From a virus (Duplodnaviria; Caudoviricetes): DNA of 59,020 nt. Under the pieces are notes generated by a model. The model saw only the letters and a list, made by a program, of their open reading frames with translations. It searched no databases and was not told the DNA's origin. The stretch is from the IMG/VR virus record IMGVR_UViG_3300034094_000170, positions 1 to 59,020 of that record; one strand, given 5' to 3'. Position 1 is the stretch's first letter; each line of letters starts with the position of its first letter. A program made the translations under genes and the position numbers. Positions 15,004 through 59,020 of the stretch are shown piece after piece.

Positions 15004-15010
15004 TTATTTG

Positions 15011-15167: not shown

Positions 15168-15326
15168 CTCTACATTATAAATGGTTTTAATGCTTGCTGT
15201 GTATAGGTTATAGTGTTCAAAAAAAAATACTTATTTAATATAACGATTAAAAAGGTGTGTTTTTGACCAACACTTAACACCACAACACTTTCCCACACTC
15301 GGTAGGGGGAGTTTAAAAATCAACAT

Positions 15327-41401: not shown

Positions 41402-42541
41402 TTAACCTAAAATTCGGCAAGCACCTTCAGGTCGAATGACAGCCGCACCAAACAAAATATCAAAAGTGAATAATGTTTGTTTATTTTCACGGGTGACTTC
41501 TAATCGCATTGTGATTTTAGTCATGTCATCAGTGAAAGTCTCAATCATGCTACCCGCAGGAATAACATCATTTAAAGGGCGAACTGCGAGAGCAAAAGCA
41601 TCACGATGAAAAGCCATATTAACAACATGGTCGCCAACAACAGTAATAGCTGAAGCGGCAGGAGCATCTTGTCTTAATGCAGGAGTAATTGGCCATGAAG
41701 TTGTAGTAGCATCTTTTCCAACAACATAGGGATAAGGGTCGCCAGCAATTGTAAAAACATCACCTTCAATTGGTGCTGCACTTGCTCCAGTTACGGTAAG
41801 AACTTTTACACCTTTTAAATTACTTGCTCCAGTCGTAGTAATTGTTCCGGCTGCGCCTGTTTCATGTGTCAAAACATTTTGAGACATAAACCAGTCAAAA
41901 CCCAATTTTCGACCGATAATTCCTTCTTTGATTGTTACATCAGTTCCGGCTTTGTCAGCATTTAAAAACTCAGGTAATGCAGTTGCGTTAGCCTCTGATT
42001 CAACATCTAATAAAATTCGACGGTCAGAAACAGGTGTTAATTGTCGGTTTAAGACTTTTCGAGCATCACGTCCAGCACCCATACCTTTATATACAGCAGG
42101 GGTTCCAGTGTTTTCTTGAAAAGGTGTGTTGCCAGCTAAACCAGCAATACCATAAACACCTTTATATAAACTTAAAAGGTATTTATCTACAGAATTTGCA
42201 AGGGATTTTGCAGCTTCAGCAACTTGCAAATTTTGATAACCATTCATTATTTCATAAATTTCTTTATCCGTTAAACGGAAAGCTTGATACTTCCATTGGT
42301 CAAGTTTAATCGGAATAAATTGAGGCGAAAGGTCTGCTGTATCAGGTGCGAGTTTAGAAGGAATAACATCTCTGGCTTCACCCATAGTGCTAGGGATAGG
42401 AACGTCAACAGATGAACCTTTTTGTCGAGCATCACTGTCAAAATTTCGATTGACTAGCAATGACATCACGGAGTTTTCACGGAACGCAACCATCCCACCG
42501 CTCAAAATTCTGGGGATTACAGCCTCAAGCAAATTAGCCAT
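41402..42541 (-). CDS. Major capsid protein (P22 coat-like)
   Basis: KGSSVDVPIP, LANSVDK, GIIGRKLGFDWFMSQN, NMAFHRDAFALAVRPL, FDILFGAAVIRPE. Confidence 0.85.
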   Translation of the reverse strand: MANLLEAVIPRILSGGMVAFRENSVMSLLVNRNFDSDARQKGSSVDVPIPSTMGEARDVIPSKLAPDTADLSPQFIPIKLDQWKYQAFRLTDKEIYEIMNGYQNLQVAEAAKSLANSVDKYLLSLYKGVYGIAGLAGNTPFQENTGTPAVYKGMGAGRDARKVLNRQLTPVSDRRILLDVESEANATALPEFLNADKAGTDVTIKEGIIGRKLGFDWFMSQNVLTHETGAAGTITTTGASNLKGVKVLTVTGASAAPIEGDVFTIAGDPYPYVVGKDATTTSWPITPALRQDAPAASAITVVGDHVVNMAFHRDAFALAVRPLNDVIPAGSMIETFTDDMTKITMRLEVTRENKQTLFTFDILFGAAVIRPEGACRILG

Positions 42542-43659: not shown

Positions 43660-45291
43660 ATGGTTTATTCTTTTTTTACTAATCAATCAATTGATAATAG
43701 CAACAACATAGAATTACCAAGCTATGAAAATCCATATTATAAATTAATGAAAAATAAATGGGCTTTTGTACTTGATATGTACAGAGGTAGGGAAGCGTGG
43801 TTATCTATAAATGATGATGGTTATTTTAATTTTGACCCTGCAAAAATCTCAAGATATCTTCCGTGCGAACAAGATGAACCAGCAGAAGAATATAAAAAAA
43901 GATTATCCCGAAGTTATTTTGAACGTTTTTTTGGGACAGCTATTGAAAACTTTTCTGGTTTTTTATCTTCATTCATTTTAAACAATGATGTTGATAAAAC
44001 AATTTTAGATAATATTGATGATGTTGATTTATTAGGAAATAATTTAGAGGTCTTTTTAAAAAATGCTGACACAAAGGCATTGAGAGATGAACATTGTTTT
44101 ATTTATGTCGAGTTTCCTAAAAAAAATGAAAATATAAAAACTGCTTACGATGAAAAAATATATAAATCAAGACCATATCTTGTTTTGATTGACTGTAGGG
44201 ATATTGTTAACGGGATTTTATCTGATGATAATAAAGAGATAATTCAATTGACAATAAAAGAAAAAATATCAGTCAAAGAGGGAAAATATGGTGTAAATGT
44301 CAAAACTAGATATAGAGTTTTGACACCTGGACATTATCAAGTTTTTGAGATTGGTGGTGAAAAAGATAATACATACCAAGTTGTTGTTGATGAAGGTGAC
44401 ACATCTCTAAATTTTATTCCGATTATACCGTATAGTTTATTTAATAAAGGTAGTATTGTTGAATATTTTGGTTGTGATGTAAACGAGGAAAGTTTAGAAA
44501 GTAAGCCTCCACTTTATGATTTAGCGGAATTAAATTTAAAACATTATCAAAAAACATCAGAAAAAGATGAGGTTATGCACAGATGTAATTTACCTGTATT
44601 GGTAATTAATGAATTACAACAAACCAGACGTAATGCTAATGAACCCTACCCGATTGTGTCTCTAGGGCCAAACACTTGTCTTTGGAATGTTGACGCTAAA
44701 TTTGTTGAGCCATCTGGTAGTGCTTTACAACAGACACAATTGGATATTGAAAAACTTGAAAAATCCATGCTTGACCGCACTCTTTCATTTTTGACAGGTA
44801 ATGAAATTGTGCGAACCGCAACAGAGGTTAATTTATTTTCTACACCTGTTGAATCTAATTTGTCAGCAATGGCACGGGCTAAACAAAGTGCTGTTGAAGT
44901 TATTTTTAGATATTGGGCAGCATACTATAAAAAACCTTATGGTGGGAGCATTAAAGTTGATGAGAGAATTTTAAAATCAACTATGGATTCTAACACATTT
45001 ACAATAATTGATAAAATATACGAAAGAGGCATAATCACAACTAAAACATATTTTCATATTTTACAGTCAGGTAAAATATTACCCAATGATTTTGTTATTG
45101 AAGACGAGTTAAAATTAGTAGAGGAAGACAGAAATAAAACTATAGCAGGACAAAACATAGATAAACTAGATGTTATTGATGATGAAGATAATGTAGATGT
45201 TAGCCAAAATAAAAACAGTAAATCTGTTGATGTTATGGTTAAAAAAGATGCAAAAATGCCAATGATAGATGAAACAAAAGATATTGATTAA
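43660..45291 (+). CDS. Portal protein (DUF4055-like)
   Basis: YLP.E.DE..EEYKKRL, RPYLVLI, IPII.Y, PPLYDLAELNLKHYQ..S, RTATE. Confidence 0.8.
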   Translation: MVYSFFTNQSIDNSNNIELPSYENPYYKLMKNKWAFVLDMYRGREAWLSINDDGYFNFDPAKISRYLPCEQDEPAEEYKKRLSRSYFERFFGTAIENFSGFLSSFILNNDVDKTILDNIDDVDLLGNNLEVFLKNADTKALRDEHCFIYVEFPKKNENIKTAYDEKIYKSRPYLVLIDCRDIVNGILSDDNKEIIQLTIKEKISVKEGKYGVNVKTRYRVLTPGHYQVFEIGGEKDNTYQVVVDEGDTSLNFIPIIPYSLFNKGSIVEYFGCDVNEESLESKPPLYDLAELNLKHYQKTSEKDEVMHRCNLPVLVINELQQTRRNANEPYPIVSLGPNTCLWNVDAKFVEPSGSALQQTQLDIEKLEKSMLDRTLSFLTGNEIVRTATEVNLFSTPVESNLSAMARAKQSAVEVIFRYWAAYYKKPYGGSIKVDERILKSTMDSNTFTIIDKIYERGIITTKTYFHILQSGKILPNDFVIEDELKLVEEDRNKTIAGQNIDKLDVIDDEDNVDVSQNKNSKSVDVMVKKDAKMPMIDETKDID

Positions 45292-45296
45292 ATATT

Positions 45297-45683
45297 ATGA
45301 ACATTTCACCTTTTGATTTTGCAGCTAACGCCGTTTTAAATTTTGATATACCTTCTGATGGTGTTAAAACTAACGATTTTGGAAATATTGTTAGTGTTAA
45401 AAAAAGTTTAAGGATTGTTGCACTATTAAATATTAAAAAAAAGGATTACCAAAATAGAGAAGGTGCTAATACTACTGATATTGCACTAGAAGGTTATTTG
45501 GTTTCGCCGATTGAATATCCTAAAGAAATTACAGATGGTATGATTGCTAACGCTGAAATAAAACTAAATTCAAATGAAATTAGCAAAGGTACTTTTGTTG
45601 TTTCTAAAAAACCAGAAAATCCTTTTTTATTATCAGCAAAAATTCAAGGGTTTACAAAAATAGAAGGGAATTTTAGAATTTAA
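45297..45683 (+). CDS. Hypothetical protein, possibly head closure
   Basis: 128 aa, follows the portal gene. Confidence 0.5.
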   Translation: MNISPFDFAANAVLNFDIPSDGVKTNDFGNIVSVKKSLRIVALLNIKKKDYQNREGANTTDIALEGYLVSPIEYPKEITDGMIANAEIKLNSNEISKGTFVVSKKPENPFLLSAKIQGFTKIEGNFRI

Positions 45684-45713
45684 TTTTCTTCTATTTTTGT
45701 GTTAGGAATCTGG

Positions 45714-45872
45714 ATTTCAATTCGCATCTCAATATTTTTTTAATATTGAGATGTTATCCTCATTTTTTACAATATTTCAATTTTCAATCCCTATTACTGA
45801 GTATTGTTACCCAAATATCAAAATATCGTTGCCTTATTTCAATTTTCAATCCCTATTAATTAATAGGGATTG
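45714..45872 (-). CRISPR. Short-spacer CRISPR-like mini-array 2, directly downstream of cas7
   Basis: Three stem + 11-nt handle units (AAAATTGAAAT twice, CGAATTGAAAT) separated by 29 and 20 nt. Confidence 0.7.
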
Positions 45873-45887
45873 TTTTAACTATTTCAA

Positions 45888-46748
45888 CTATTTGTCAACA
45901 CTCCAAAAACTTACACTATCTGGAGTATTATCGTAATCAATGGAAATATCATAATCGCTGATACTTCGAGGGATGTCAACATTTTTTTCAACTGACAACA
46001 TCTCAAACAATTTATGACTAGGATAATTACCCCATTTACTGTCATGGGTAAAAATATACAATCCTTGACAGTTCATTGAAGAACGGGCAGAGCTTTTATC
46101 AAATTCCCAACAATTAACAAGCGCATCCCAAAAAAGTTTTAAATCATCTTCAGAAACGTCGCCTTTATTCAAACCAGGATTGTAATGGATTTCAACCTTA
46201 AATAAACCATAAGGGATTAACTCTTTACGACCCATAGTTTTATTGTCCTTGCCCTCAGTTCCCTCAGTAGCGGCACATCGGGTAATTGTTGCTGAAATAG
46301 GCAATACAGGGTCAAACGAACGTCCCCAACTAACTTGTACTGGCCCCCAAACTTGTCCTGCTTTCCATCCAGTAGACAAAACGGCCCCAAACATCCGAAT
46401 ATCAAAATATCTTTGTCGTAGTAATGTCTGAACTTTTTCTTGTTCTTCTGGTGAACCTTCTTTTTTGTTACCTTTTTTGACACTAGGCTCAATCCCTAAA
46501 TCGGTGTAACCTTGGTCAATTTTGTTATTGAGGATACTACCTTCTTTAACAAAAATTTCATGGTTTCCAAGCATTTGAACATAGTTACGAATCTTGCGTT
46601 TAATACAAGCATCGGTCATTAAACCGTGTCGGGTTTCAGAATCGGTTCTTGGCTGATTTCCTGCGTCTGGGTCGCCATTAGGATTACCGTCAGTGCAATC
46701 AACTAATAAGATTGCATCATGTTTTTTGTTAGGGTCAAAGTGGTTCAT
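45888..46748 (-). CDS. cas7: Type I-C Cas7 (Csd2)
   Basis: GNPNGDPDAGNQPRTD, TDACIKRKIRNYV, FDIRMFGAV, GPVQ, TITRCA, TMGRK. Confidence 0.93.
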   Translation of the reverse strand: MNHFDPNKKHDAILLVDCTDGNPNGDPDAGNQPRTDSETRHGLMTDACIKRKIRNYVQMLGNHEIFVKEGSILNNKIDQGYTDLGIEPSVKKGNKKEGSPEEQEKVQTLLRQRYFDIRMFGAVLSTGWKAGQVWGPVQVSWGRSFDPVLPISATITRCAATEGTEGKDNKTMGRKELIPYGLFKVEIHYNPGLNKGDVSEDDLKLFWDALVNCWEFDKSSARSSMNCQGLYIFTHDSKWGNYPSHKLFEMLSVEKNVDIPRSISDYDISIDYDNTPDSVSFWSVDK

Positions 46749-46751
46749 GGT

Positions 46752-47126
46752 TTATTCTTCCTCTTGTTTGTTTTCAGTGTTTTGTTTAGTGTAAAATTCA
46801 GCCCGTCGCTTTGCAAATCCTATGAAAAACAAAGATTTTTGACGGAGTGAAAAATTTTCAGGTAAGTTTTCAGGATTAAATTCTAAAAACTCGGAATCTA
46901 AACAGTTTTGGACGTAAATCGTATTTGTTGCCGATTGTAGATGGTGACAATAACAACCTTGATACAATCGGTCAAATACTTGAAAAGGTGTTGTTGAAAG
47001 TGTTTTAAGAGAACGCAACACATTAGTATCTTCATTGTTTCCTTGATTACGTCCTTTTATTTGTGCAACGTGCATCAAGAAAGCAATCCGACCTAATCGG
47101 TATGCAATATCATCATTTGTTTCCAT
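46752..47126 (-). CDS. cas11: Cas11c small subunit from an internal in-frame start in cas8c (124 aa)
   Basis: In-frame ATG (METNDDIAYRLGR) after A-rich AAAGAAATCAAA; internal translation of Cas11 is established for type I-C. Confidence 0.65.
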   Translation of the reverse strand: METNDDIAYRLGRIAFLMHVAQIKGRNQGNNEDTNVLRSLKTLSTTPFQVFDRLYQGCYCHHLQSATNTIYVQNCLDSEFLEFNPENLPENFSLRQKSLFFIGFAKRRAEFYTKQNTENKQEEE

Positions 47127-48449
47127 TTTGATTTCTTTGATTGTTTGGTTGAGATAGAGCAAAAGACCTTTTACTCTGACAGCAAGAGAATAACTAAAAA
47201 ACTTTAGATTTTCCTCGCTATGGCATTCGGCACAGATTCTATCAATTAGTTTTTGAGCATATTCATCTGGTAATGTTTTACCCAAAAGAGTGTAATAAAT
47301 CAAAGCTGTTTCCACTCTTTGAGTGTAATCACCCGCATCAAAAAAAGCAGCTTTAATCAATGCGTAAATGGGCAAAACTTTACCATCAAGTGATTGTTGG
47401 ATTTCAAGAAAACGTTTGACATTTTCAGCTATTTCATCGGGAGTAGTTTTGTTAATCCCATTGATAGCAATCCTTCCAGCATTACCCTTTAAAATACCAA
47501 GGTAAAACTCAGATGAATATGCTCTGGTGTTTGCTGAAGTTTTACCTCCATAAACACTTTTGAAAAGACCTGAGAATTTTATTGATTCAGGGTCATTCCA
47601 AAACTCATCATTTATTCCCTCCTGATTGACATTTCCCCAATAAACAAACATCTGCTTATTAAGGGTTTGGTGATGATATGGGGAGTTTATTAAGTAGTCA
47701 AGTCCACTTATCACCCCCCATGCTGTATCAATCCCTATAGGCGCATTGTCATTACCTTTAAATCCCCATCCCTGATAGGCAGGTTTATCAAAAGATGTGA
47801 TTGATGCTCCAGTGCTATTGCCACCAGGGATATTTTTTATTTTTTCAGGGAAAACACTCAAAATAATTGGTTGTTTTTCCCCAGTGATGATACAACGTTT
47901 ATCATTCCAATCATCTAAATCTAAACGGTCAAGATATTCAAACCGCCAAAACTCTTGAATTTTTGGAGTGTCAGAAATTAGTTTTGGTTGCTCATCATCT
48001 CCTGTTGTACAGAATGCAAACCTCAACCCTTCACCCATTTTTTTATTAGGAACAGGTTTGCATCCGATTTCTTTGAGATGATTTACAACATCTTTTGTGT
48101 TAACGCTTTCAAGATAAGATATAATTTTGGAAGTGTTAACGTCTAACGTCTTCTTGCAACATCTATGCAGCAACTCCAAATATGCTGCATATTTTTTTTT
48201 ATCCAAACCTAAAACGTATTCACCAACATCAACAATCAAGATAGGAACTGTCCCATTTCTACTCAGTGATGGCACAATCATCCGTTTACCCTGAGTGCTA
48301 AAAACTTTATCCTTTTTGATTCTCTCTGTTTTTAATAATGTGATGGAATTGTTATCAACATTAATCAAAACATCAACTTTTTGAGTGGAATAACCTACGG
48401 GTAATTGCGGGTTTAATGTTTTAGAAAAATCATACAATTCTTTTAGCAT
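46752..48449 (-). CDS. cas8c: Type I-C Cas8c (Csd1)
   Basis: CIITG, GASITSFDKPAY..WG, NAGRIAI, AYRLGR, FFIGF; lies between cas5 and cas7. Confidence 0.88.
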   Translation of the reverse strand: MLKELYDFSKTLNPQLPVGYSTQKVDVLINVDNNSITLLKTERIKKDKVFSTQGKRMIVPSLSRNGTVPILIVDVGEYVLGLDKKKYAAYLELLHRCCKKTLDVNTSKIISYLESVNTKDVVNHLKEIGCKPVPNKKMGEGLRFAFCTTGDDEQPKLISDTPKIQEFWRFEYLDRLDLDDWNDKRCIITGEKQPIILSVFPEKIKNIPGGNSTGASITSFDKPAYQGWGFKGNDNAPIGIDTAWGVISGLDYLINSPYHHQTLNKQMFVYWGNVNQEGINDEFWNDPESIKFSGLFKSVYGGKTSANTRAYSSEFYLGILKGNAGRIAINGINKTTPDEIAENVKRFLEIQQSLDGKVLPIYALIKAAFFDAGDYTQRVETALIYYTLLGKTLPDEYAQKLIDRICAECHSEENLKFFSYSLAVRVKGLLLYLNQTIKEIKMETNDDIAYRLGRIAFLMHVAQIKGRNQGNNEDTNVLRSLKTLSTTPFQVFDRLYQGCYCHHLQSATNTIYVQNCLDSEFLEFNPENLPENFSLRQKSLFFIGFAKRRAEFYTKQNTENKQEEE

Positions 48450-49090
48450 CGCACTACCCCATTTTTCATGATTGCTTCAAAATATTCAGGTTCAACATTA
48501 CCCTTTGTAATCTTTTTTTGTTGATGGTCAAACCATTGAAGCTTGCCTGTTTTACTAGGGTTAAAATTTATCTTTTTGAGAACTTGTCCAAAGTTAAACT
48601 CACCCAAAAGTTCGGGATGTACCTGTTCAGTACCATCAGGAAATTTAAAAGCACAAGCATACTCTTTAACACCCATACATGGTTGTTTGAAACAAGCACC
48701 TTGACTGATTCGCTTGTTTACGATGGCAAAATATTTATCAATTGGGTCTGTTGCCCTTTTAGTCAATTCCATGCCAAAATCAATGATGTAAGCAGGGTTT
48801 TTAAGAACAACAAAATTGCGCTGTGAACGGTCGTCACTGATGATGTAATGTTCTTTGTCGTAACTACTGGTAACGATTTTACTCTTACCCATATTACGAA
48901 AAAAAGAAGCGTATCTGATTGGATTCAGAACTGTTATACTGTTGACCGTATACTCGATTTCCGGTTTCCAGAAAATCGCCTTTAGGATTCCCTCTGCTGC
49001 ACTAGGAGTGAGAAAAGGATATGAAAATGGGTCAGCTTTTGTTTCGGGTTTTGTGAATAAACCATACTCGCCCCACACTTTTAATTGCAT
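48443..49090 (-). CDS. cas5: Type I-C Cas5 (Cas5d, crRNA-processing)
   Basis: KVWGEYGLFTKPE...SYPFLTPSAAEGILKAIFWKP, VLNPIRY, GACFKQPCMGVKEY. Confidence 0.93.
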   Translation of the reverse strand: MQLKVWGEYGLFTKPETKADPFSYPFLTPSAAEGILKAIFWKPEIEYTVNSITVLNPIRYASFFRNMGKSKIVTSSYDKEHYIISDDRSQRNFVVLKNPAYIIDFGMELTKRATDPIDKYFAIVNKRISQGACFKQPCMGVKEYACAFKFPDGTEQVHPELLGEFNFGQVLKKINFNPSKTGKLQWFDHQQKKITKGNVEPEYFEAIMKNGVVRC

Positions 49091-49304
49091 AGGTTTATAT
49101 TTTTAATTCAGTATTTCAATTCGGTTGTTTGCTCTTACTGAATTAAATATACCAATAAAAAGCTAGTTGTAAACATATTTTAGTTTTGATTTTTATATCA
49201 AATAACAAAAAACTTATAAGTTATAATCATATATTTTAATGTTGAAAAATCACATATTTAAGTTAGGATTATCAATTATCTATGTCAAAATTTAGGAAAC
49301 AAAA

Positions 49305-51389
49305 ATGGAATTACACGCCAGGAGATTTATAGTTAATGGTAAATTTATTACACAAGATTTGATAGAGCATCTTAAAGGTGTTGCCAACAAATCAAGTGAT
49401 AAATTTAAAAATATTTCAGTTGATTTAAAAACATTAGCTTTTTATGCAGGGCTATTACATGACGTTGGAAAAGCTAAAAAATCATGGCAAAAATATATGT
49501 TTAAAAAATCGTGGGAAAAACATCTAACAAAAAAATCAGATAAAAAAAAATCAAAAGTTGAAATGGTTTTCCACTCATCAGAGGGTGCTAGAGCTATCAT
49601 GGAACTGTCAGGTGATGACTACCACCCGCTTGCATGGATTATTCAAGCGCATCACACAGAGTTAAAAAACCAAAGTGATTTAGGAAGTGATTATTTTATT
49701 GAAAATTCTAAACATTGGAAAACTTGCCTTGACCGTGTTTTTCCTGGGTTTGATATCAATAAAATTCCAAAATTAAAATTAAATATTTTAAAAAAAGAGT
49801 TGGCAATCAGGATGTTGTATTCAGTTTTAGTTGATTCTGATAGGCTTGATGCTCAAGAATTTGAAGAAAGATATTATAAAAACGTTGTTACACATAAACC
49901 ATCTATCTTGACTGTCTGTAATATATGGTCAAATATACCAGTACCACCACCGGAAAACACTTTGGTATCGGTTGAGCGTAAATATTTTAGAGATATTGTC
50001 AGTGGTTATATCAAAGATAAAAAAACCTGTTACCGATTAATTGGTGCTACTGGAGTAGGAAAAACACTTACATCACTCAACTTTGCATTAGAGCATTGCA
50101 AATATCATAATATGGATGGATTGATTTATGTTGCTCCGTACAAGTCAATCATTGACCAAACTGCTAAGATATATCGTGAATTGTTGAGTGATGATGCTGT
50201 TTTGGAACATCACTCCGATTTTGTACCTAAACCTAAAGATGAAAATGATTATAAGTTATCTTGCCAAAGGTGGGATTATCCGGTGATAGTTACTACTGCG
50301 GTACAATTTTTTGAGTCAATATTTTCTAACAAATCTACCCGATGTCGCAAGCTTCAAGGATTACTCAATAAGGTGATTTTGATTGATGAATACCAAACTA
50401 TTCCACCTAATTTAATTGAATCAATTGCCGATATTTTAAAAAATTTAGTTGAAGATTTTGGATGCACTGTAGTTTTAATGTCAGCTACAGCACCAAATTT
50501 ATCGGGTTTTAATTTACCCCATGTTGACATGATTCCACAATCAGAAGTAAATCGTCAATTTGAAGTTTTGCAGCGTTGTGAGTATGAATTTAAGGAGTTT
50601 GATTATCAAGAAATAGCTAATTTTCCTGGTAAAAAACTTGTAATCGTAAACACCACGAAAACAGCATTAAATTATTTTCAATATTTTGATAGTGTCCAAC
50701 CGGGACAATGGCTACACTTATCATCTCGGATGTGTGTTTCACATCGTAAAGAAGTGATTAAAAAATTAAAAACTGGTAAATATAATTGTGTCAGCACTCA
50801 GATTGTGGAAGCAGGGATTGATATTGATTACCCCACAGTTTTTACAGAAGAATGTCCTTTTGATTCATTGATTCAACGTGGTGGACGTTGTAATCGTGAA
50901 GGTAAATTACCGTCAATGGGTAAAGTTTTTATCATCCCTTGCAGCAATTATCCTGGTCAAGAATACAGACAGTTGGCAATTACAACATCTAATTATATTT
51001 TAAACCATAAAGGCTTTAAACCTGATGAATTGGTTGGCTTATTGAGTAAATATTTTAGTGTGAGAAATTCTAATATTTCATCTGAAATTCAAGATTTAAG
51101 AAAGAATTTAATGTTTAAAGATGTCAACGATAAATTCAAAGTGATTGAGGATGGTATGCCTAATGTTTTATGTGAATGGGGTGATGGAATACAATTAATT
51201 AATCAGTTAAAAAATAAACCAAAATTGACACCTAATGAATGGAAACAATTACAACAATTTACTGCAACAATTTTACCCAAGGATGATAATTTTAAAAATG
51301 TTGTAGAATATGATAATGGTATGAGAGTTTGGAATGATGGATATGATGATAATTTTGGAGTATATATTCAAACTTCATATATTATTTAA
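49305..51389 (+). CDS. cas3: Cas3 HD nuclease-helicase
   Basis: EHL, LLHDVGK, HS, HH, LVDSD (HD domain); ATGVGKT, IDEYQ, MSAT, STQIVEAGIDID, QRGGRCNREG (helicase). Confidence 0.93.
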   Translation: MELHARRFIVNGKFITQDLIEHLKGVANKSSDKFKNISVDLKTLAFYAGLLHDVGKAKKSWQKYMFKKSWEKHLTKKSDKKKSKVEMVFHSSEGARAIMELSGDDYHPLAWIIQAHHTELKNQSDLGSDYFIENSKHWKTCLDRVFPGFDINKIPKLKLNILKKELAIRMLYSVLVDSDRLDAQEFEERYYKNVVTHKPSILTVCNIWSNIPVPPPENTLVSVERKYFRDIVSGYIKDKKTCYRLIGATGVGKTLTSLNFALEHCKYHNMDGLIYVAPYKSIIDQTAKIYRELLSDDAVLEHHSDFVPKPKDENDYKLSCQRWDYPVIVTTAVQFFESIFSNKSTRCRKLQGLLNKVILIDEYQTIPPNLIESIADILKNLVEDFGCTVVLMSATAPNLSGFNLPHVDMIPQSEVNRQFEVLQRCEYEFKEFDYQEIANFPGKKLVIVNTTKTALNYFQYFDSVQPGQWLHLSSRMCVSHRKEVIKKLKTGKYNCVSTQIVEAGIDIDYPTVFTEECPFDSLIQRGGRCNREGKLPSMGKVFIIPCSNYPGQEYRQLAITTSNYILNHKGFKPDELVGLLSKYFSVRNSNISSEIQDLRKNLMFKDVNDKFKVIEDGMPNVLCEWGDGIQLINQLKNKPKLTPNEWKQLQQFTATILPKDDNFKNVVEYDNGMRVWNDGYDDNFGVYIQTSYII

Positions 51390-51642
51390 TTCCGACAACC
51401 TAGAGGTGTACAGCTAACAATGTCTAAAAAATAGTCTACACCTCTCACCACACAACCCTTTGAGCGATTCTAACTTAAAAATAGGTTGGCGGAAACGCTA
51501 GAATACTTATGGGTAAACATTTTTTGATGATTATTACTAATATCCACTTGACAAATAATGAATACATTTGCTATTATTAATTCAGGTTGTCGGAATCAAA
51601 CCTTGAAAACTAAATATATCAAGGGTTTGAAAAGCAATGCAA
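51390..51642 (+). promoter_or_regulatory. CRISPR leader with promoter
   Basis: TTGACA(51548)-18 nt-TATTAT; inverted TTCCGACAACCT/AGGTTGTCGGAA; CCTTGAAAACTAAATATATCAAGGGTTT next to repeat 1. Confidence 0.75.
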
Positions 51643-52119
51643 GTATCAACTCCTAGCAATGGGAGTTGCGAATTGAAACATATCGGTGTTCGAGTTGTTC
51701 CCCCTTGCTCACCTGTATCAACTCCTAGCAATGGGAGTTGCGAATTGAAACATCACCTATGAGCAAAAAATCGATAATGCTATTCAAGTATCAACTCCTA
51801 GCAATGGGAGTTGCGAATTGAAACGCGTGGCTTGGCTTGCCTTGCTTGGCTGTGAGAGAAAAGTATCAACTCCTAGCAATGGGAGTTGCGAATTGAAACA
51901 AGCCTTCCTGAACACTGCCAACAGCCCCAATGTAAGTATCAACTCCTAGCAATGGGAGTTGCAAATTGAAACGATTTGTTCTATGTTGGTAATACTATCA
52001 GCATTTAGCAGTATCAACTCCTAGCAATGGGAGTTGCGAATTGAAATAATTATCCGACGCGATACCAATGATGAAATATTTGGTATCAACTCCTAGCAAT
52101 GGGAGTTGCGAATTGAAAT
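51643..52119 (+). CRISPR. CRISPR array: 7 x 37-nt repeat GTATCAACTCCTAGCAATGGGAGTTGCGAATTGAAAC, 6 spacers of 35-38 nt
   Basis: Repeats start at 51643, 51715, 51788, 51863, 51936, 52011 and 52083; stem CAACTCC/GGAGTTG followed by an 11-nt handle. Confidence 0.97.
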
Positions 52120-52232
52120 CATGAATTGGTCATTAACAATCTCGTTTTTATCGAGATTGAGAATTGAAACCAATCATGGCTTGCAGACCATTTCTAAACA
52201 ACAATTAGAAATGAGAATTAAAATACGATAAT
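52120..52232 (+). CRISPR. Short-spacer extension of the array with two sequence-divergent repeats (mini-array 3)
   Basis: 17 nt, then CAATCTCG/CGAGATTG + AGAATTGAAAC; 18 nt, then CATTTCTAA/TTAGAAATG + AGAATTAAAAT. Confidence 0.75.
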
Positions 52233-53567
52233 TTGACACTCCCCGCTCTAAAGAGACGGGGATTCTTGGTTCACAGAGATTACTTGCTTAGACAGAATTG
52301 CTTCTGAAAAAGTAGAGGTATTCTCTCCCCAAGCGTTTATTGGGTCGAGCCCAAAGGTTCCGGTATGCCCTACCGTACTTAGTCCCCTTTTAAGGATGTT
52401 GATTGCGGCGTTTTCATCCCTATCCAAAACACATCCACACTTGCACTGATGGGTTCTAGTCGATAAAGATTTTTTGACAGTTTCACCACAGTTTGAACAG
52501 TTTTGGCTTGTATAGTTCGGTGCGACAGCAATCGTTATCTTGCCAAATTTAACCCCAAAATACTCTATCCATTCCCGAAACTGATACCAGGCCGCATCAT
52601 TTATCGATTTAGCTAGACAATGATTCTTGACTAAGTTCTTAACTCTTAAATCCTCGTAGGCTATCACATCGCTAGAGTGAACTACGCACCTTGCTAATTT
52701 CACAGCAAAGTCTTGACGTTGCCTACTTACTTTAAGATGAGCTTTAGCTAATCTTTGTCTAGCTTTTTGACGATTTTTACTTCCCTTTTTCTTTTTAGAT
52801 AATCGCCTTTGAAGTCGTTTTAATCGTTTCTCAGACTTTCTCAAGAATTGAGGATTATCAACCTTGTTGCCATTGTTATCTGTATAGAAAGAAGCCAAAC
52901 CTACATCTAAGCCAATACACTTACCTGATGGTTTAACATCTTCTTTAACGTCACAAGAAAGGACAAATTGACAATAATAACCGTCCGCTCTCCGAATCAA
53001 CCTAACCCGTTTAATATCGGATTCTTGAAAGTACCCTAAATCCCAAGTTCCTACCAACTTAAGAACACCAATGTTTTTCTTGTCAGTGAACTTAACAGTT
53101 TTCGGGCTAAGAAGCTTCCATCCTGATTGTTTGTATTCAACAGAGCGAGATTTTTTAAATTGAGGATACCCCTTTTTGCCTGATACTTTACGTTTACAGT
53201 TGTCGTAAAAACGACTAATTGAACTCCAAGCACGTTCAGCACTTGCCTGTCTAGCAGTTGAATTAAGTTCATCGGCAAATTTAAAGTCCTGAGCTAATTC
53301 TTTAGAATATCGGTATAAATCGTTCTTACCCGTACCTTTTGTATCCATCCATAACCTTACACATTTGTTACGGATGAATTGAGCAGTACGAATAGCATCG
53401 TCTATGGCTTGATACTGTTGAGTTTTAGCTTTAACTTTAAACTCTAAGACAAACATTTTACGCAGGGGGGACTTAGACAAAATCAGTATAGCACAATAAA
53501 AGTTAAGTTAACAAGCTATAGTTTAAAAAGCCGTCCTAAAAGGACGGGGCTTTAACCCAAAATTTCG
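52233..53567 (-). mobile_element. IS200/IS605-family element with tnpB only (IS1341-like)
   Basis: Right-end hairpin GAATCCCCGTCTCTTTAGAGCGGGGAGTGTCAA; left-end hairpin near 53530-53550, preceded by TTTAC; left boundary approximate. Confidence 0.8.
52248..53456 (-). CDS. tnpB: TnpB RNA-guided endonuclease
   Basis: RuvC motifs GLDVG, YEDL and DRDENAA; zinc finger CSNC...CKC; likely ATG at 53456. Confidence 0.92.
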   Translation of the reverse strand: MFVLEFKVKAKTQQYQAIDDAIRTAQFIRNKCVRLWMDTKGTGKNDLYRYSKELAQDFKFADELNSTARQASAERAWSSISRFYDNCKRKVSGKKGYPQFKKSRSVEYKQSGWKLLSPKTVKFTDKKNIGVLKLVGTWDLGYFQESDIKRVRLIRRADGYYCQFVLSCDVKEDVKPSGKCIGLDVGLASFYTDNNGNKVDNPQFLRKSEKRLKRLQRRLSKKKKGSKNRQKARQRLAKAHLKVSRQRQDFAVKLARCVVHSSDVIAYEDLRVKNLVKNHCLAKSINDAAWYQFREWIEYFGVKFGKITIAVAPNYTSQNCSNCGETVKKSLSTRTHQCKCGCVLDRDENAAINILKRGLSTVGHTGTFGLDPINAWGENTSTFSEAILSKQVISVNQESPSL

Positions 53568-53587
53568 GTAAAGTGAAAAAAGACGAT

Positions 53588-53623
53588 AAAAACCCCTGAT
53601 ACGTCTCTATACCAGGGGTTTTT
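53588..53623. terminator. Bidirectional intrinsic terminator (probably the original end of the CRISPR transcript)
   Basis: AAAAACCCCTG...CAGGGGTTTTT. Confidence 0.65.
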
Positions 53624-53757
53624 CAAACAAAACAAACAAAAGAAATAATTGAAACATATCAATTTATGTTGTTATGACTACAAATAAAACAATTAATATT
53701 TTGTCATAACCATAACAACATCAACATTGTAACCTAAACACCTAAAGGTGTCAAGTT

Positions 53758-53994
53758 TTAATTTATGTTGATTTTACTCACTTTTTCTTTAACTTCTTTA
53801 ATCCAATTTATTGCAGGTTGATTGAGTTTGATTTGTTCCTCTGTATTTTGCCCTAAATTTTTTAGATGATTTGATAATCGACCATTGTTGATTTTTTCTT
53901 GTAACTGCAATTTTAATTGCTCAACTTCTTTAATTAAATCATCTCTTTCTTGCTCTAAAGCTTTGATGTTTGCTTGTTTTTTGATGTCATTCAT
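53758..53994 (-). CDS. Small coiled-coil hypothetical protein
   Basis: 78 aa; a TGCTATGAT -10-like element lies upstream. Confidence 0.55.
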   Translation of the reverse strand: MNDIKKQANIKALEQERDDLIKEVEQLKLQLQEKINNGRLSNHLKNLGQNTEEQIKLNQPAINWIKEVKEKVSKININ

Positions 53995-54054
53995 TGTTTT
54001 GCCTTGTTGTTTTACATATTTATATCATAGCACAAAATACAGCTTTTGCAATAC

Positions 54055-54083
54055 TTGACATATTTGTTGACAATGTGTAAAAT
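54055..54083 (+). promoter_or_regulatory. Sigma70-type promoter
   Basis: TTGACA-17 nt-TAAAAT. Confidence 0.65.
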
Positions 54084-54336
54084 AAGAATACTAAGATATA
54101 ATAACAAATAAATATGGTAACAGTAACTTGGCAAAATGAGCAAAAAAGATGTTTCCAGTCAACAGGTAAAATTAACAGTGATGGCGATTTTATCTATAAC
54201 GGTAACTGGGTATCATATCTTGATAAATATAATTACTCTTTTCATCAATTTTAAGGAGTAAAAGGAAAAAAAAGAAATTATCAAAAAAGGTAATTTTGAG
54301 ATTGTTTAATTTTTTAGTTAAAATAAAGGAAAAAGC

Positions 54337-54558
54337 ATGAGTTATGTAGCAGATAGAGATTGGCTAGAAAGTTTGAAAGTTGGTGATAAAGTTGTCGTAA
54401 AAGACAACAAAAACGCCATAAAACCAATCAACGCAATAATAACAAAGGTTACAAAAAAACTCATTTATGCAAACTATAACGAGTTTTCAAGACAGTCAGG
54501 AAAGATTAATACCAACAAGAGCGGAAGCAATTATTATTACCTGAGCAAAAGAGAGTGA
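54337..54558 (+). CDS. Small hypothetical protein (SH3-like LKVGDKVVV)
   Basis: AAGGA Shine-Dalgarno-like element; 73 aa. Confidence 0.55.
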   Translation: MSYVADRDWLESLKVGDKVVVKDNKNAIKPINAIITKVTKKLIYANYNEFSRQSGKINTNKSGSNYYYLSKRE

Positions 54559-54598
54559 ATTGACACTCCCCGCTCTGAAGAGACGGGGATTCTACATT

Positions 54599-55780
54599 CT
54601 ACGTCAGAATTTGCTCAACCAGGTTTTCACCAAGAAGAGTAGAGACTCCAACTCCTGTAGCGTTAATTCGGGAATGCCCTTCCCTATTTTTAGCTAAATT
54701 CAGAATGTTAATTGCAGCGTTTGTATCTCTGTGCAACTCACATCCACAAGTACAAACATGGGTGCGAGTTGATAGAGATTTTTTCACAATTACCCCACAA
54801 TTAGAACATTTCTGTGAAGTGTAATGGGGTGGAACTGGTATTGCCAATTTATCAAATTTAGCTGCAAAATATTCTATCCATTGTCGGAACAAATACCAAC
54901 TGGCATCACTAATTGATTTAGCTAAACAGTGGTTTTTAACTAAATTCTTAACACTTAAATCTTCGTAGGCTACTACATCGTTAGATGTGCATACGTTACG
55001 CGCTAGTTTTTTAGCGTGTTCATTCCGTTGCCTGCTTACTTTTAAGTGTTTTTTAGCGTAAACTTTTCTGGCTTTCCGTCTTCCTGATGAACCTTTAACC
55101 TTTTTATAGATTTGTCTCTGAGATTTTTTAATCGACGTTTCCGCCTTTCTTAGAAACTTGGGATTTGGTTCTTGATACCCGTTAGAGTCTGTATAGAAAG
55201 ATTCTATTCCAACATCCAGTCCGATTTCCTTTCCGGTTTTCGGTTGAACATCAGTGACGGTAATATTCAGGCAAAATTGACAGTAATATCCATCAGCGCG
55301 ACGAATTAAACGAATCCGTTTAATATCTTTGACGTTGTAAGTATGGATATCCCATTTTCCTAAAAGTTTAAGTTCACCAATACCTTTTTTGTCAGTTATG
55401 GTAATTCTTCTTTTAGTGGGATGCAATGACCAACCCGATGTTTTATATTCAACAGAACGACAATCTTTCTGAAATCTAGGAAATCCTTTCTTTCCAGAAA
55501 CCTTTTTCTTACAATTTTCGTAAAAACGAGAAATTGCCGACCATGCTCGTTCCGCAGCAGCTTGTACTGCCATTGAATTTAAGTCTTTGACAAAATCGAA
55601 TTGTGAACGAAGTTCTGTAGAATACTTGTTTAAAGCAAATCGATTAATTTTGGTATCTTTAGGTGCGTCCATCCAATACCGAATAGACTTGTTTCTAATA
55701 AACTGTACCGTTTTAATCGCCTCATCAATCGCTTTGTACTGATGAGGTTTTGCTTTGATTTTGTATTCTATAACTATCAT
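54599..55780 (-). CDS. tnpB: TnpB RNA-guided endonuclease
   Basis: GLDVG, YEDL, HRDTNAA; CSNC...CTC. Confidence 0.92.
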   Translation of the reverse strand: MIVIEYKIKAKPHQYKAIDEAIKTVQFIRNKSIRYWMDAPKDTKINRFALNKYSTELRSQFDFVKDLNSMAVQAAAERAWSAISRFYENCKKKVSGKKGFPRFQKDCRSVEYKTSGWSLHPTKRRITITDKKGIGELKLLGKWDIHTYNVKDIKRIRLIRRADGYYCQFCLNITVTDVQPKTGKEIGLDVGIESFYTDSNGYQEPNPKFLRKAETSIKKSQRQIYKKVKGSSGRRKARKVYAKKHLKVSRQRNEHAKKLARNVCTSNDVVAYEDLSVKNLVKNHCLAKSISDASWYLFRQWIEYFAAKFDKLAIPVPPHYTSQKCSNCGVIVKKSLSTRTHVCTCGCELHRDTNAAINILNLAKNREGHSRINATGVGVSTLLGENLVEQILT

Positions 55781-55872
55781 TGATTCGACCTGTCAATGGG
55801 TTGTCTGTTTGCTACTATCAACCTTAACACAGTAAACTAGATTTGTCGATAAAAATATCAGAACAACCAAAT

Positions 55873-56283
55873 ATGAAACTGAAGTCTATAGATTACAAGC
55901 ATTACAACCACTCAGTCGGATTAGCTTGTGTCCACCTGGTTTGGATTCCAAAACGAAGAAAGCGTGTGCTAGTTGGAAACGTAGCAACACGCTGTCGGGA
56001 GATATTTTATGAATTAGCAATTGAGAAAGAATGGGAGATTAAAGCACTGGAGATAGCTCCTGACCATATTCATTTATTTATCTGCCATCAACCTAATTAT
56101 TCGATTAGTCAGATTGTGCAAGCTTTCAAAGGGAGATCGTCGTGTTACCTCAGAAGAGAATTTCCTGATTTACTGAAACTTCCTAGTTTATGGACTCGCT
56201 CCTATTTTCACACAACTGCTGGTAGTGTTAGCTCGAAAGTTATCATGGAATATATTAATGACCCCCATCACAGTACCCATTAA
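55873..56283 (+). CDS. tnpA: IS200-type Y1 transposase
   Basis: HLVWIPKRR, PDHIHLF (HUH), LWTRSYF, EYI (catalytic Tyr). Confidence 0.92.
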   Translation: MKLKSIDYKHYNHSVGLACVHLVWIPKRRKRVLVGNVATRCREIFYELAIEKEWEIKALEIAPDHIHLFICHQPNYSISQIVQAFKGRSSCYLRREFPDLLKLPSLWTRSYFHTTAGSVSSKVIMEYINDPHHSTH

Positions 56284-56366
56284 AAGACAGGCGCTTAAAA
56301 GCGCTGCTTGCCTTCATCCACGAACTGAAGTTACGTGGTTTTCGGCTCTGCCAATAATAAACTGAT

Positions 56367-56735: not shown

Positions 56736-56875
56736 AAAATTAAAATAGATGAGCGACTAACTAACAATACATAATTAATTATGTATTGAGAATTGAAATA
56801 GATGAGCGACTAACTAACAATACATAATTAATTATGTATTGAGAATTGAAATAATTATGTATTGAGAATTGAAAC
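56736..56875 (+). CRISPR. Short-spacer CRISPR-like mini-array 4 (53-nt tandem unit)
   Basis: [AGATGAGCGACTAACTAA + palindrome CAATACATAATTAATTATGTATTG + AGAATTGAAAT] twice, then a half repeat ending AGAATTGAAAC. Confidence 0.7.
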
Positions 56876-56890
56876 AAATGAGTAAATAAA

Positions 56891-56925
56891 TTTAAAACCC
56901 ACTAATCAATTAGTGGGTTTTAAAA
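56891..56925. terminator. Bidirectional terminator
   Basis: TTTAAAACCCACTAAT-CA-ATTAGTGGGTTTTAAA. Confidence 0.7.
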
Positions 56926-56926
56926 A

Positions 56927-57253
56927 CTAAACAATCATACTAACAACATTGCCTAATTCAACTTTATGAAGCAGTAGTATTAAATTTTTAATTTTAACAG
57001 CTATTGCTTTTGTTAATTTTGAAATTTCATAGATATTGTTATCCACAACAAAACCTTGTCGGTTTATTGTACTAACATGAATAACTGTTTTGGGTGTGAG
57101 AGGTGGAGCAGAATAACATTTGCTCACCTTTATATAATGCTGATATCCATAATCATATAAAGCAATTTGATTGTTATTAGAATCAACATCTATCTTAAAA
57201 CCCATCATTGTTAAAATCTTAGTGTCGTCATTATTAAAAGTGAATCGTGGCAT
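56927..57253 (-). CDS. Hypothetical protein
   Basis: 108 aa, converges on the terminator; AGGA upstream. Confidence 0.55.
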   Translation of the reverse strand: MPRFTFNNDDTKILTMMGFKIDVDSNNNQIALYDYGYQHYIKVSKCYSAPPLTPKTVIHVSTINRQGFVVDNNIYEISKLTKAIAVKIKNLILLLHKVELGNVVSMIV

Positions 57254-57824: not shown

Positions 57825-59020
57825 ATGATTTCTGAAAAAACAATAGAATCCTGCAAAAATATTTCCATTGTCACGATTGCCGAACGGATTGGACTAAAGT
57901 TAAAAAAAATCGGTAGTCAGTTTGTTACCTCATGCCCATTCCACAAAGAAAAAACCCCTAGCTGTTACCTGACTGACGGCAAGGGGTTTAAATGCTTTGG
58001 TTGCAATGAGAGTGGTGGGAGCATCAAATTCTATCAAAAGCTCTGTGGGATTGATAAATTTAAAGATGTAATTTTGGCAATGGCATCAGAATTTTCTATC
58101 AATGTAGAGTATGAAAATGATTCTCAGTCTCAATCACAAAATGATGTTCCTAAAAAAATTATTACTCAAGAAAATAAAACTGTAAAAAACAATGCCAAAA
58201 AAGTTGTAGCTATGAATATTGATTTTGTTGAGTTAGCAAAAACGATAAACCCTAACCTCGGTGTCCTTAAAACCCGCCAGGTTGGAGGTTGTACCGAGGT
58301 CAGGGTTACTTACAATTACTCTGACAGCCAATCTGTCGAGCGAATCGAACGCTTTGATTCAAGCAATATTCGCATCGAGTTTCAGATAGGTAGTCGTCCA
58401 AAAAGTCTTAAACATATAATACCACATCATATAGATGATAGTGGGGAAACTCAAAATAATAAAGGTGATTTGCCTTGGGGTTTTTACGGTCAAAGCGATG
58501 CTGTGACTCACGGTAAAGGTAAATTTGTGTTAATGGTTGAGGGTGAAAAATGTGCAGATGTTATTCGTCAAATAGGATTAGTGGCAGTCTCTCGGATGGG
58601 TGCTGACAAAAAACCCGAAGCTATTAAACGTAATTTTCAAGCGTTGAGTGATGCTGGTGTTGAGGGTGTCATCTTTATATCTGACAATGATGAACCAGGG
58701 GAAAAAGAGTGTGAGACATTTTCTGAACTTGCTACAGATACAGGATTAAAAACCTTAACACTCAAAACTTTAGACTTATATCCTGAAGCTCAAAAAGGTG
58801 ATGATGTTGTTGATTGGGTGATAGCTGACCATGAATTATCTCATACTGATTTTATCAAAAATATTGAATTAGCGATTGATAAAAAAATAAATGTTGCCAA
58901 TAAAACTGAATCAGAACCAATAGAGAAAGCGATTGATTTAGTTAAAAAAGTGATGTTGAGTGAGATTTTTAGTGACATTCAAAAAGCTGTAAAGATTGAT
59001 AAAATAAAAGAGGAATTTAA
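57825..59020 (+). CDS. DNA primase/replication initiator (CHC2 zinc finger + TOPRIM), runs off right edge
   Basis: CPFHKEKTPSC...FKCFGC; VEGEKCAD; DNDEPG; GDDVVDW; alternative in-frame ATG at 57750; not in ORF track. Confidence 0.85.
   Translation, partial: MISEKTIESCKNISIVTIAERIGLKLKKIGSQFVTSCPFHKEKTPSCYLTDGKGFKCFGCNESGGSIKFYQKLCGIDKFKDVILAMASEFSINVEYENDSQSQSQNDVPKKIITQENKTVKNNAKKVVAMNIDFVELAKTINPNLGVLKTRQVGGCTEVRVTYNYSDSQSVERIERFDSSNIRIEFQIGSRPKSLKHIIPHHIDDSGETQNNKGDLPWGFYGQSDAVTHGKGKFVLMVEGEKCADVIRQIGLVAVSRMGADKKPEAIKRNFQALSDAGVEGVIFISDNDEPGEKECETFSELATDTGLKTLTLKTLDLYPEAQKGDDVVDWVIADHELSHTDFIKNIELAIDKKINVANKTESEPIEKAIDLVKKVMLSEIFSDIQKAVKIDKIKEEF

Follow-up and report, generated by a model that had tools for sequence, protein, structure and literature searches.

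Repeat-like mini-arrays within cas loci are a broad published kind (PMC10120712; 10.1101/2023.03.10.532045), and the element described here, which lies behind cas7 in the type I-C operon of a phage, belongs to this kind as it is outlined in those sources. Five described systems come close to it. Regulatory crRNA-like RNAs show spacers of 23-27 nt in CreA/CreR and of 17-21 nt in viral type I-F systems, according to the figures given in 10.1101/2024.10.29.618823, and in the printed descriptions CreA/CreR have a PAM-flanked, PAM-proximal match adjoining a cas or toxin promoter. The phage element resembles CreA/CreR in that its units keep the handle, its 25-nt spacer falls within 23-27 nt, it lies inside a cas locus and it has no full-length target. 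It differs from them as described, since the published target is a promoter seed with a PAM, whereas here only a match in the cas7 coding sequence was found, without TTC and with PAM-proximal mismatches; furthermore, its place is at the 3' end of a cas operon, in a system carried by a phage. Viral Cracr RNAs are, according to 10.1101/2024.10.29.618823, also carried by phages, with stacked short-spacer units of which the last ends in a terminator. However, the Cracr set of that source was defined after excluding matches within CRISPR-Cas loci, and Cracrs borrow host Cas proteins and match host CreA/CreR spacers (10.1101/2024.10.29.618823), whereas the phage element is in its own cas operon and shows no host match in five related host-type loci. 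RNA anti-CRISPRs are an example of repeat mimicry by phages, and one of them, RacrIC1, is located a few nt behind a gene and in the same transcript (PMC10651486). Those described in PMC10651486 are solitary, lie away from cas genes and act as decoys, whereas the phage element shows three units with spacers beside the cognate cas7, and it was not assigned to the RNA anti-CRISPRs, which are solitary repeat units. Orphan arrays of E. coli contain anti-cas spacers (as told in PMC8616872); these also match cas genes of the cognate type, and their proposed role is the exclusion of rival copies of the system. Orphan spacers elicit interference in that account, whereas the phage array adjoins a full set of interference genes and the matches to the carrier's own gene contain mismatches; a good fit to a foreign allele is shown by the spacer of one related genome only, G795. 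Finally, viral arrays of one or two spacers matching close relatives have been described as serving in conflicts among related viruses (Faure 2019, Medvedeva 2019; as reported in PMC8616872 and PMC10120712), but they use host Cas proteins and full-length spacers, and no rival phage target was found here.

The window, which is the whole stretch of DNA analysed, corresponds to the entire phage genome, a single contig of 59,020 bases with 32% G+C. PHROG profiles, with which 10 ORFs were scanned, name a major head protein (41402-42541), the portal (43660-45291), a scaffold protein and a primase (from 57750 onwards), and the ORF list includes a single open frame of 6,835 codons. The type I-C interference module is located between the portal region and the primase. 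On the minus strand it contains the cas5c-cas8c-cas7 operon (49090-45888, NCBIfam), in which cas5c (48443-49090; NCBIfam Cas5c, E 6.7e-29) and cas8c (46752-48449; NCBIfam Cas8c, E 7.5e-48) are upstream of cas7 (Csd2; 45888-46748; NCBIfam TIGR02589, E 1.4e-85), whose translation has 286 aa and whose stop codon TAG is at 45890-45888. On the plus strand, beyond the cas5/cas3 intergenic region (49091-49304), it contains cas3 with HD and helicase domains (49305-51389, NCBIfam). The leader of the canonical array (about 51440-51640, plus strand) is downstream of cas3 and shows the best promoter match. The canonical array (51643-52170, plus strand) contains seven repeats of 37 nt (51643-52119), spacers of 35-38 nt and, at its end, a degenerate unit whose stem differs but is compensated. 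Downstream of this array are two TnpB genes and one TnpA gene. The cas3, cas5c, cas8c and cas7 genes, and a repeat formed by a hairpin with an 11-nt 3' tail, assign the module to type I-C. Neither cas1 nor cas2 nor cas4 was recognised next to the module, the remaining genome being viewed as ORF lists and through the 10-ORF PHROG scan. The genome also shows a stand-alone unit made of a promoter, a repeat, a 24-nt guide and a terminator (15076-15170), and a second mini-array (56738-56875) in which the ends of the repeats imitate the main repeat of the cyanobacterial G247 family. The nearest named Cas7 proteins are cyanobacterial (Planktothrix sp., 66% identity), and unnamed metagenome proteins reach up to 81%, the two closest clusters being at 81% and 80%. 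Megablast of 45300-49300 against GenBank phages and plasmids and blastn of the canonical array (51644-52210) gave no match, and blastn of the mini-array (45640-45900) gave chance-level matches only. Among the viral contigs, no relative was found with Cas7 as query, and there were no matches to the 18-mer of the canonical repeat 3' end or to either of canonical spacers 1 and 4. The phage was found in at least 14 freshwater or wastewater DNA sequencing runs. In four runs aligned to the genome, no transcript of the mini-array was seen. One RNA run (X16) covers 52233-53000, a TnpB element, alone, and its gap over 45000-52200 carries no weight either way; another run (X4) is probably DNA rather than RNA.

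The mini-array shows three repeat-like units on the minus strand, starting 15 nt past the cas7 stop, with spacers of 25, 16 and 15 nt. The canonical repeat and the units have a common build: four lead bases come before a hairpin, which is followed by an 11-nt tail NNAATTGAAAY (handle NNAATTGAAAT). The linker of 15 nt (45887-45873, minus strand) and the cas7 stop codon read ATAGTTGAAAT, identical at 10 of 11 positions to the handle pattern. Unit 1 (45872-45836) contains a perfect 11-bp hairpin, with the stem-loop CAATCCCTATTAATTAATAGGGATTG (45872-45847), and the handle AAAATTGAAAT (45846-45836), and is followed by spacer 1 (45835-45811, 25 nt, AAGGCAACGATATTTTGATATTTGG). Unit 2 (45810-45774, 37 nt, GTAACAATACTCAGTAATAGGGATTGAAAATTGAAAT) ends in the same handle, AAAATTGAAAT, and precedes spacer 2 (45773-45758, 16 nt, ATTGTAAAAAATGAGG), whose A-run shows a 1-nt deletion in one metagenome run. 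Unit 3 (45757-45714) contains ATAA, a perfect 12-bp hairpin, with the stem-loop CATCTCAATATTAAAAAAATATTGAGATG (45753-45725), and the handle CGAATTGAAAT (45724-45714), identical at 10 of 11 positions to the canonical one. Spacer 3 (45713-45699, 15 nt, CCAGATTCCTAACAC) runs into a terminator stem; all these features are on the minus strand. The handles of units 1 and 2, AAAATTGAAAT, and of unit 3, CGAATTGAAAT, correspond to CGAATTGAAAC in the canonical repeat. A 9-bp hairpin in the 5' leader of cas5c contains an exact copy of CGAATTGAAAT in its loop (49123-49113). The strings given in a first-pass annotation of this DNA, and its 15-nt distance to the cas7 stop, are all correct when read on the minus strand. 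That annotation described three stem and handle units, one of them of exactly 37 nt with an imperfect stem. The units are indeed derived from repeats and carry the handle on the cas7 strand, and two of them fold: unit 1 at -14.3 kcal/mol (z -4.8) and unit 3 at -13.4 kcal/mol (z -8.6), values equalled by none of 200 shuffles in either case. Unit 2 has the 37 nt of the canonical repeat but no stable repeat hairpin, imperfect or otherwise (-3.6 kcal/mol, z -0.9; equalled by 42 of 200 shuffles); it is a decayed repeat copy and not of equal standing with units 1 and 3. The stems of units 1 and 3 are unrelated in sequence, and each differs from every other repeat in the genome. The 18-mer common to units 1 and 2 shows six matches in the window at three mismatches or fewer (mean 0.25 and maximum 2 in 100 shuffles), and perfect hairpins of at least 6 bp followed by NN and AATTGAAAY occur 13 times in the window (mean 1.39 and maximum 4 in 100 shuffles). 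A canonical CRISPR array was rejected as the identity of the element, which shows three different stems and spacers of 25, 16 and 15 nt instead of 35-38 nt. The Rfam CRISPR-DR5 score of unit 1 is 25.5 bits, under the gathering score of 40. Among the viral contigs, the 19-mer of units 1 and 2 gave two matches, both unrelated, and the unit 1 stem-loop gave none.

Downstream of the units, a bidirectional intrinsic terminator with a 13-bp stem and a U5 run on the minus strand is predicted at 45698-45654 (fold z -4.6 on the minus strand and -4.8 on the plus strand). It overlaps the stop of a convergent ORF (45297-45683), and a homologous hairpin is present at the equivalent place in the related phage contig L047. 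Between cas7 and the units the minus strand shows nothing terminator-like, and on this strand units 1-3 run into the handle without a U-run; read on the plus strand, the palindrome of unit 1 leads into TTTTAACTAT. Since a separate terminator comes after the units, the hairpins are not needed to end convergent transcription, and the idea, raised in the first-pass annotation, that they function only as a terminator between convergent genes does not agree with their lack of U-runs on the minus strand.

The sequence of spacer 1 identifies it as a diverged copy of the cas7 coding strand of the phage itself. The segment matched (46419-46395, minus strand, 5' flank ACT) contains the codons for L-RQRYFDIR and is identical to the spacer at 21 of 25 positions; none of 500 shuffled guides reaches four mismatches or fewer anywhere in the genome, and the similarity ends at the spacer borders. 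In the cas7 frame the spacer encodes RQRYFDIW and the gene RQRYFDIR. Three of the four mismatched bases fall in two codons which remain Arg. The fourth changes Arg to Trp, and since this Arg is invariant in 21 of 21 Cas7 sequences, spacer 1 is no clean copy of a functioning allele. Three of the four mismatches are at seed positions 2, 4 and 8, so binding of spacer 1 to the phage cas7 should be weak. A six-base spacing of the mismatches (positions 2 and 8; 8, 14 and 20) was also considered and dropped, since third codon positions explain it equally well. With 21 of 25 positions matching a cas gene of the cognate type, spacer 1 is an anti-cas spacer as these are defined. Against five cyanobacterial cas7 genes it shows 8-9 mismatches, and none of the 44 matches to its core among the viral contigs is inside a cas7. 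No allele closer to spacer 1 than the phage cas7 was found among these five genes and the viral contigs. Neither spacers 2 and 3 nor the remaining mini-units showed an origin in a gene when compared at peptide level with the six-frame translation.

The Cas7 search of cyanobacterial genomes was positive in 13 of 401 genomes of a phylum sample, 13 of 401 of an order sample and six of 144 in one family. Five genomes of this family have a Cas7 72-76% identical to that of the phage and contain the closest cas7 genes found; in a Cas7-alignment scan of genome contigs, the best locus among the matches listed was 51% identical. In the five family loci cas3 is divergent from cas5c-cas8c-cas7, as in the phage, and no adaptation genes (cas1/cas2) are beside them. 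Repeat-like units at or just after the cas7 stop are present in three of the six closest loci. G247 shows two units from the cas7 stop codon with a 32-nt spacer between them, followed by a terminator, a leader and the main array; G795 shows two units after cas7 and a 33-nt spacer; and G787 shows one unit. G786, G793 and the metagenome contig L162 show no unit after cas7. Among more distant loci, L137, L167 and L168 have a common set of five to six units after cas7, with different stems and the same spacers, and L165 has one decayed repeat. Unit 1 of the phage is identical to the G787 unit at 35 of 39 nt, and at 25 of 26 in the stem-loop, where one loop base is changed; the cas7 genes of the phage and G787 are 74% identical overall and 54.5% identical at third codon positions. 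Unit 2 is identical to the second units of G247 and G795 at 31 of 37 positions. On these alignments the position of the units and their hairpin appear conserved, and the element appears dispensable, since three of the six close relatives have no units.

In all three loci which have a first spacer (the phage, G247 and G795) it is derived from cas7; the site of origin varies, and both orientations occur. That of G247 corresponds in sense orientation to part of the G247 cas7, close to the 3' end, at 27 of 32 positions (0 of 200 shuffles show fewer than 10 mismatches). In G795 the first spacer runs antisense to this part of cas7 and fits the G247 allele (27 of 33, the first 20 exact) far better than its own (19 of 33, the first 12 exact); across the five genomes, its 20-mer is present only in the G247 cas7 and in the G795 spacer itself. 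Since the mismatched part of this spacer still encodes a Cas7-like peptide with conservative changes, it points to a third, unseen cas7 allele as the source. The G247 and G795 spacers hit the most variable internal patch of cas7, with a pairwise difference of 0.35 against a gene mean of 0.089 in five alleles, so that alleles could be told apart. The viral contig L047, whose portal is 67% identical to that of the phage, has at the same spot, on the minus strand, a leader and a three-repeat array with the same terminator, and this leader is homologous to the one now found after cas3 in the phage. In 113 type I-C loci, cas7-like sequence just behind cas7 was found by blastn-short (E<=0.05) in 24, against 12 shuffled controls, and a clear cas7-like stretch is present only in the phage (the 14-nt core of the 21/25 match) and G247 (33 nt). 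L134 and L138 show 13-nt exact cas7-like matches behind cas7 (E 0.003). An antisense cas7 match in the G219-type loci (L137, L167 and L168) was not counted, with 7-8 mismatches in 27 positions and 0, 4 and 3 of 200 shuffles as good. Spacers of five related cyanobacterial arrays show no match to the phage at seven mismatches or fewer, there are no matches of L047 spacers to the phage or of phage spacers to contigs L047-L049, and the G247 array gave only chance matches to phages.

The PAM reported for type I-C is TTC, according to 10.1101/2022.06.15.496202. The 5' flanks of the three cas7 sites are ACT (phage), CTC (G247) and ATT (G795), none of them this reported TTC, and no protospacer that could reveal the PAM of the clade was found for any canonical spacer. 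For all mini-unit guides, none of the phage seed matches of at least 9 nt, among the matches listed, is TTC-flanked or falls in 49091-49304. The five related host-type cas loci show no PAM-flanked seed of at least 12 nt, and their one TTC-flanked 9-nt seed is at chance level. The hallmark of viral Cracr RNAs, at least 9 PAM-proximal matches to a host cas or creT promoter or to a host CreA/CreR spacer, did not show up convincingly in these five loci. The stand-alone 24-nt guide has no match at three mismatches or fewer in 144 genomes of the G247 family.

The preferred reading, to which a probability of roughly 0.4 is given, is that the units form a degenerate crRNA-like mini-array in the cas operon and that its first guide recognises cas7 genes. 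The mini-array would be the 3' end of the cas5c-cas8c-cas7 transcript and would be closed by its own terminator. The operon transcript would read through cas7 into the units, a type I-C processing activity would cut at the 3' base of hairpins 1 and 3, and each RNA released would contain an 11-nt handle and a short guide. The phage Cas5c and Cas7 would bind these RNAs to give shortened Cascade-like complexes. Since the guides, at 25, 16 and 15 nt, are shorter than the canonical spacers of 35-38 nt and have no full match in the phage, such complexes would bind or compete and would not trigger cutting by Cas3. The job of the first guide is taken to be the recognition of cas7 genes of this type I-C lineage, because it is cas7-derived in the phage and in both relatives with a first spacer. 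It may act as a brake on the phage's own cas7, or it may be a guide against rival cas7 alleles which spares the own gene; the seed mismatches to the own gene and the case of G795 lean towards rival alleles, which would fit the mismatch pattern better than plain self-repression. A wider version, in which type I-C systems of the cyanobacterial and cyanophage lineage have, joined to the end of cas7, a built-in anti-cas7 guide that is directed at an allele-specific patch, silences or excludes rival systems, spares the own gene by synonymous seed changes and is a conflict tool shared by virus and host, is considered unlikely.

Several points argue for a guide. Retention of the hairpin and handle suggests that the Cas machinery still recognises the units, and the repeated derivation of the first spacer from cas7 speaks for selection or for a strong local uptake bias. 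Cas5c, as described in PMC8524198, takes its cue from the cut site and the handle downstream of it rather than from the loop or the 5' side, which fits variable stems with a fixed handle. The spacer lengths fit those of the published regulatory crRNA-like RNAs, as far as these are given in the source cited, and are counted in favour of a guide. Although a guide is the best explanation, the cas7 sites lack the reported TTC flank, no allele among those compared matches better than the own cas7, unit 2 is decayed and the units are missing from three of six close relatives. The catalytic Tyr46 of Bacillus halodurans Cas5c is replaced by His in three solved orthologues, next to Trp, according to PMC3973291. 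The phage and all 11 cyanobacterial relatives aligned have Phe where the solved Cas5c proteins have this catalytic Tyr/His, so the agent that would cut the RNA is uncertain and processing by Cas5c is assumed.

The main rival of the guide reading is a serious one, although somewhat improbable: the units would be remnants of an older array behind cas7, a relic or autoimmunity scar whose RNAs are now inert. The cas7-like spacers would have been taken accidentally from array-adjacent DNA, with survival due to a mutated PAM, seed or flanking repeat. DNA adjacent to an array is a hot spot for spacer uptake, which counts for this explanation. The decay of unit 2 and the shortened spacers, the absence of units from three of six close relatives, and cas7 sites without the reported TTC flank and with mismatches in the seed also speak for it. 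L047 still has a true leader and array at the same spot, the main array of G247 is still behind cas7, and a contig in run X4 matches from 45775 rightwards and differs on the other side, which suggests spacer turnover. A relic accounts for the decay of unit 2, for the uneven distribution of the units and for the lack of PAMs, but less well for the kept hairpins: units 1 and 3 retain perfect 11- and 12-bp stems and the handle despite stems unlike those of other repeats in the genome, and unit 1 and the G787 unit share 90% of their positions, compared with about 55% for the silent positions of cas7. Moreover, the G247 and G795 mini-arrays are upstream of the leader and not at the old end of the main array, and the loci have no cas1/cas2 nearby. 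Alternatively, the units could be sites in the operon mRNA which Cas5c or Cas7 bind or cut, whatever the spacer content, giving feedback on cas mRNA stability or titrating Cas subunits like RNA anti-CRISPRs. Conservation of the handle and hairpin with spacers that differ between relatives fits such sites, as does the exact CGAATTGAAAT copy in the loop of the cas5c leader hairpin, and a type I-C solitary repeat unit placed 11 nt behind a gene in the same transcript is described as inhibiting type I-C (PMC10651486). This explanation is held to be quite unlikely, since it leaves the cas7 origin of the first spacer in three of three loci unexplained and the RNA anti-CRISPRs described in PMC10651486 are in elements without cas genes.

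Two further explanations concern other targets. Short guides that silence host genes, including host type I-C genes, in the manner of viral Cracr RNAs, would agree with the stand-alone promoter-repeat-guide-terminator unit at 15076-15170, with the mimicry of the G247-family main repeat by the second mini-array at 56738-56875 and with the same architecture in viral crRNA-like RNAs as described in 10.1101/2024.10.29.618823. Against these guides stand the lack of a PAM-flanked seed of at least 12 nt in the five related host-type cas loci and of a match to the stand-alone guide (three mismatches or fewer) in the 144 G247-family genomes, and they are regarded as very improbable. The first-pass annotation had compared the element with CreA/CreR regulatory guides, while seeing no convincing match to the cas5/cas3 intergenic region. 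This last observation is borne out by the seed matches of at least 9 nt listed, none of which falls in 49091-49304. CreA/CreR-like features are present, as the units keep the handle-coding end and adjoin cas genes on the same strand. A mini-array within the cas locus with short spacers would suit repression of a cas or toxin promoter by a guide through a short PAM-flanked seed match, the classical CreR/CreA scheme, and such elements are reported for type I-C in 10.1101/2023.03.10.532045. The search for PAM-adjacent guide matches gave a different picture, since no TTC-flanked seed of at least 9 nt is among the matches listed and the cas7 site is ACT-flanked with seed mismatches. In addition, no small toxin gene fits between cas7 and the terminator, where there is no room for one, and the classical scheme is thus judged extremely unlikely.

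The records and main-text passages covered by the literature search contain no report of a phage-borne type I-C module in a cyanophage or of crRNA-like guides matching the body of a cas7 gene. Regulatory crRNA-like RNAs have become a topic of study only recently, and those described in the published portions cited are aimed at promoters and are encoded either by hosts, beside cas genes, or by phages without cas genes. With respect to those papers, as far as their cited parts extend, the new features are the presence of Cas proteins together with several crRNA-like loci in one phage and, in three separate genomes, a first guide that stems from the coding sequence of cas7; in one of these genomes the guide points at the allele of another species. 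If the guides do not work, the locus would be a clear case of tolerated self-derived spacers. If they work, they would reveal a new feedback point, in the body of the gene for the most abundant Cascade subunit, or else a direct conflict between the related CRISPR systems that virus and host carry, and they would provide short natural guide scaffolds for type I-C.

The main array region (51643-52232, + strand) does not show a constant spacer content across metagenomes. Its variants in the metagenome runs show the joints 51679>52077 and 51901>52083, together with several loose ends, and spacers have therefore been lost or gained. The terminal unit of the array (52137-52170) has a different stem sequence, yet it is fully paired. 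Despite the variable content of this array, no cas1 or cas2 gene was seen beside the cas module of the phage. The cyanobacterial type I-C loci L143 and L158-L161, which belong to five genomes of one family, contain arrays that reach 17 spacers and are kept without adaptation genes adjoining the loci. Variation also seems to affect the mini-array downstream of cas7: one contig of sequencing run X4, probably a DNA run, has the sequence of the window from 45775 rightwards, a fragment containing unit 2, spacer 1, unit 1 and cas7, and shows unrelated sequence on the other side of this position. Since the contig diverges at 45775, a variant of the mini-array carrying a different second spacer seems to exist.

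The main array and a second mini-array flank a TnpB/TnpA element (52233-56300), which contains two TnpB genes on the - strand (52248-53480 and 54599-55780) and a gene encoding an IS200-type TnpA (55843-56283). Contigs from other runs break at 52232/52233, at the edge of this element, and the element is the sole part of the window contained in the RNA run X16. The second mini-array (56738-56935, + strand) shows two units and a truncated third unit, followed by a terminator. Both complete units have the handle AGAATTGAAAT, the 3' tail of the repeat, and a perfect 12-bp stem, and one 18-nt spacer is present in two copies. The repeat ends of this mini-array copy the main repeat of the family of G247, a cyanobacterial genome with one of the closest cas7 loci, and in G247, too, the main array is followed by a small array in which a spacer is duplicated.

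A stand-alone unit (15010-15170, + strand) contains a promoter-like sequence, TGTTATAAT, a repeat-like hairpin, CAATCCTTTTTATGGATTG, bearing the handle TGAATTGAAAT, a G+C-rich guide of 24 nt and a strong terminator. The same handle is found in the related phage contig L047. A search of 144 genomes from the family of G247, allowing up to three mismatches, gave no match to the guide. All five cyanobacterial relatives retain a sequence that lies upstream of the terminator and follows the last repeat-like unit or the cas7 stop; over its first 14 nt it agrees with the phage primase gene (57953-57966, + strand) at 13 positions, with the mismatch at position 6 and a flanking AAA, a similarity that is probably due to chance.

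Elsewhere in the phage genome, a group I intron (14352-14568, + strand; Rfam RF00028, 96 bits, E 1.3e-23) has open frames on either side and may split a gene. An uninterrupted open frame of 6,835 codons (15327-35834, - strand), with many internal tandem repeats, occupies one third of the genome.

In the alignment, the phage Cas5c (48443-49090, - strand) shows a Phe, in the motif IFWKPE, in the column of the catalytic Tyr/His of the solved proteins. All 11 cyanobacterial relatives aligned, among them loci that carry long arrays, show the same replacement. The cas5c leader (49113-49150, - strand) contains an exact copy of the handle, CGAATTGAAAT, within the loop of a 9-bp hairpin whose arms are AATTCAGTA and TACTGAATT, and upstream of this handle there is a promoter-like site (TTTACA, 16 nt, TATATT). 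This hairpin may be a binding site for Cas5c on the mRNA of its own gene.
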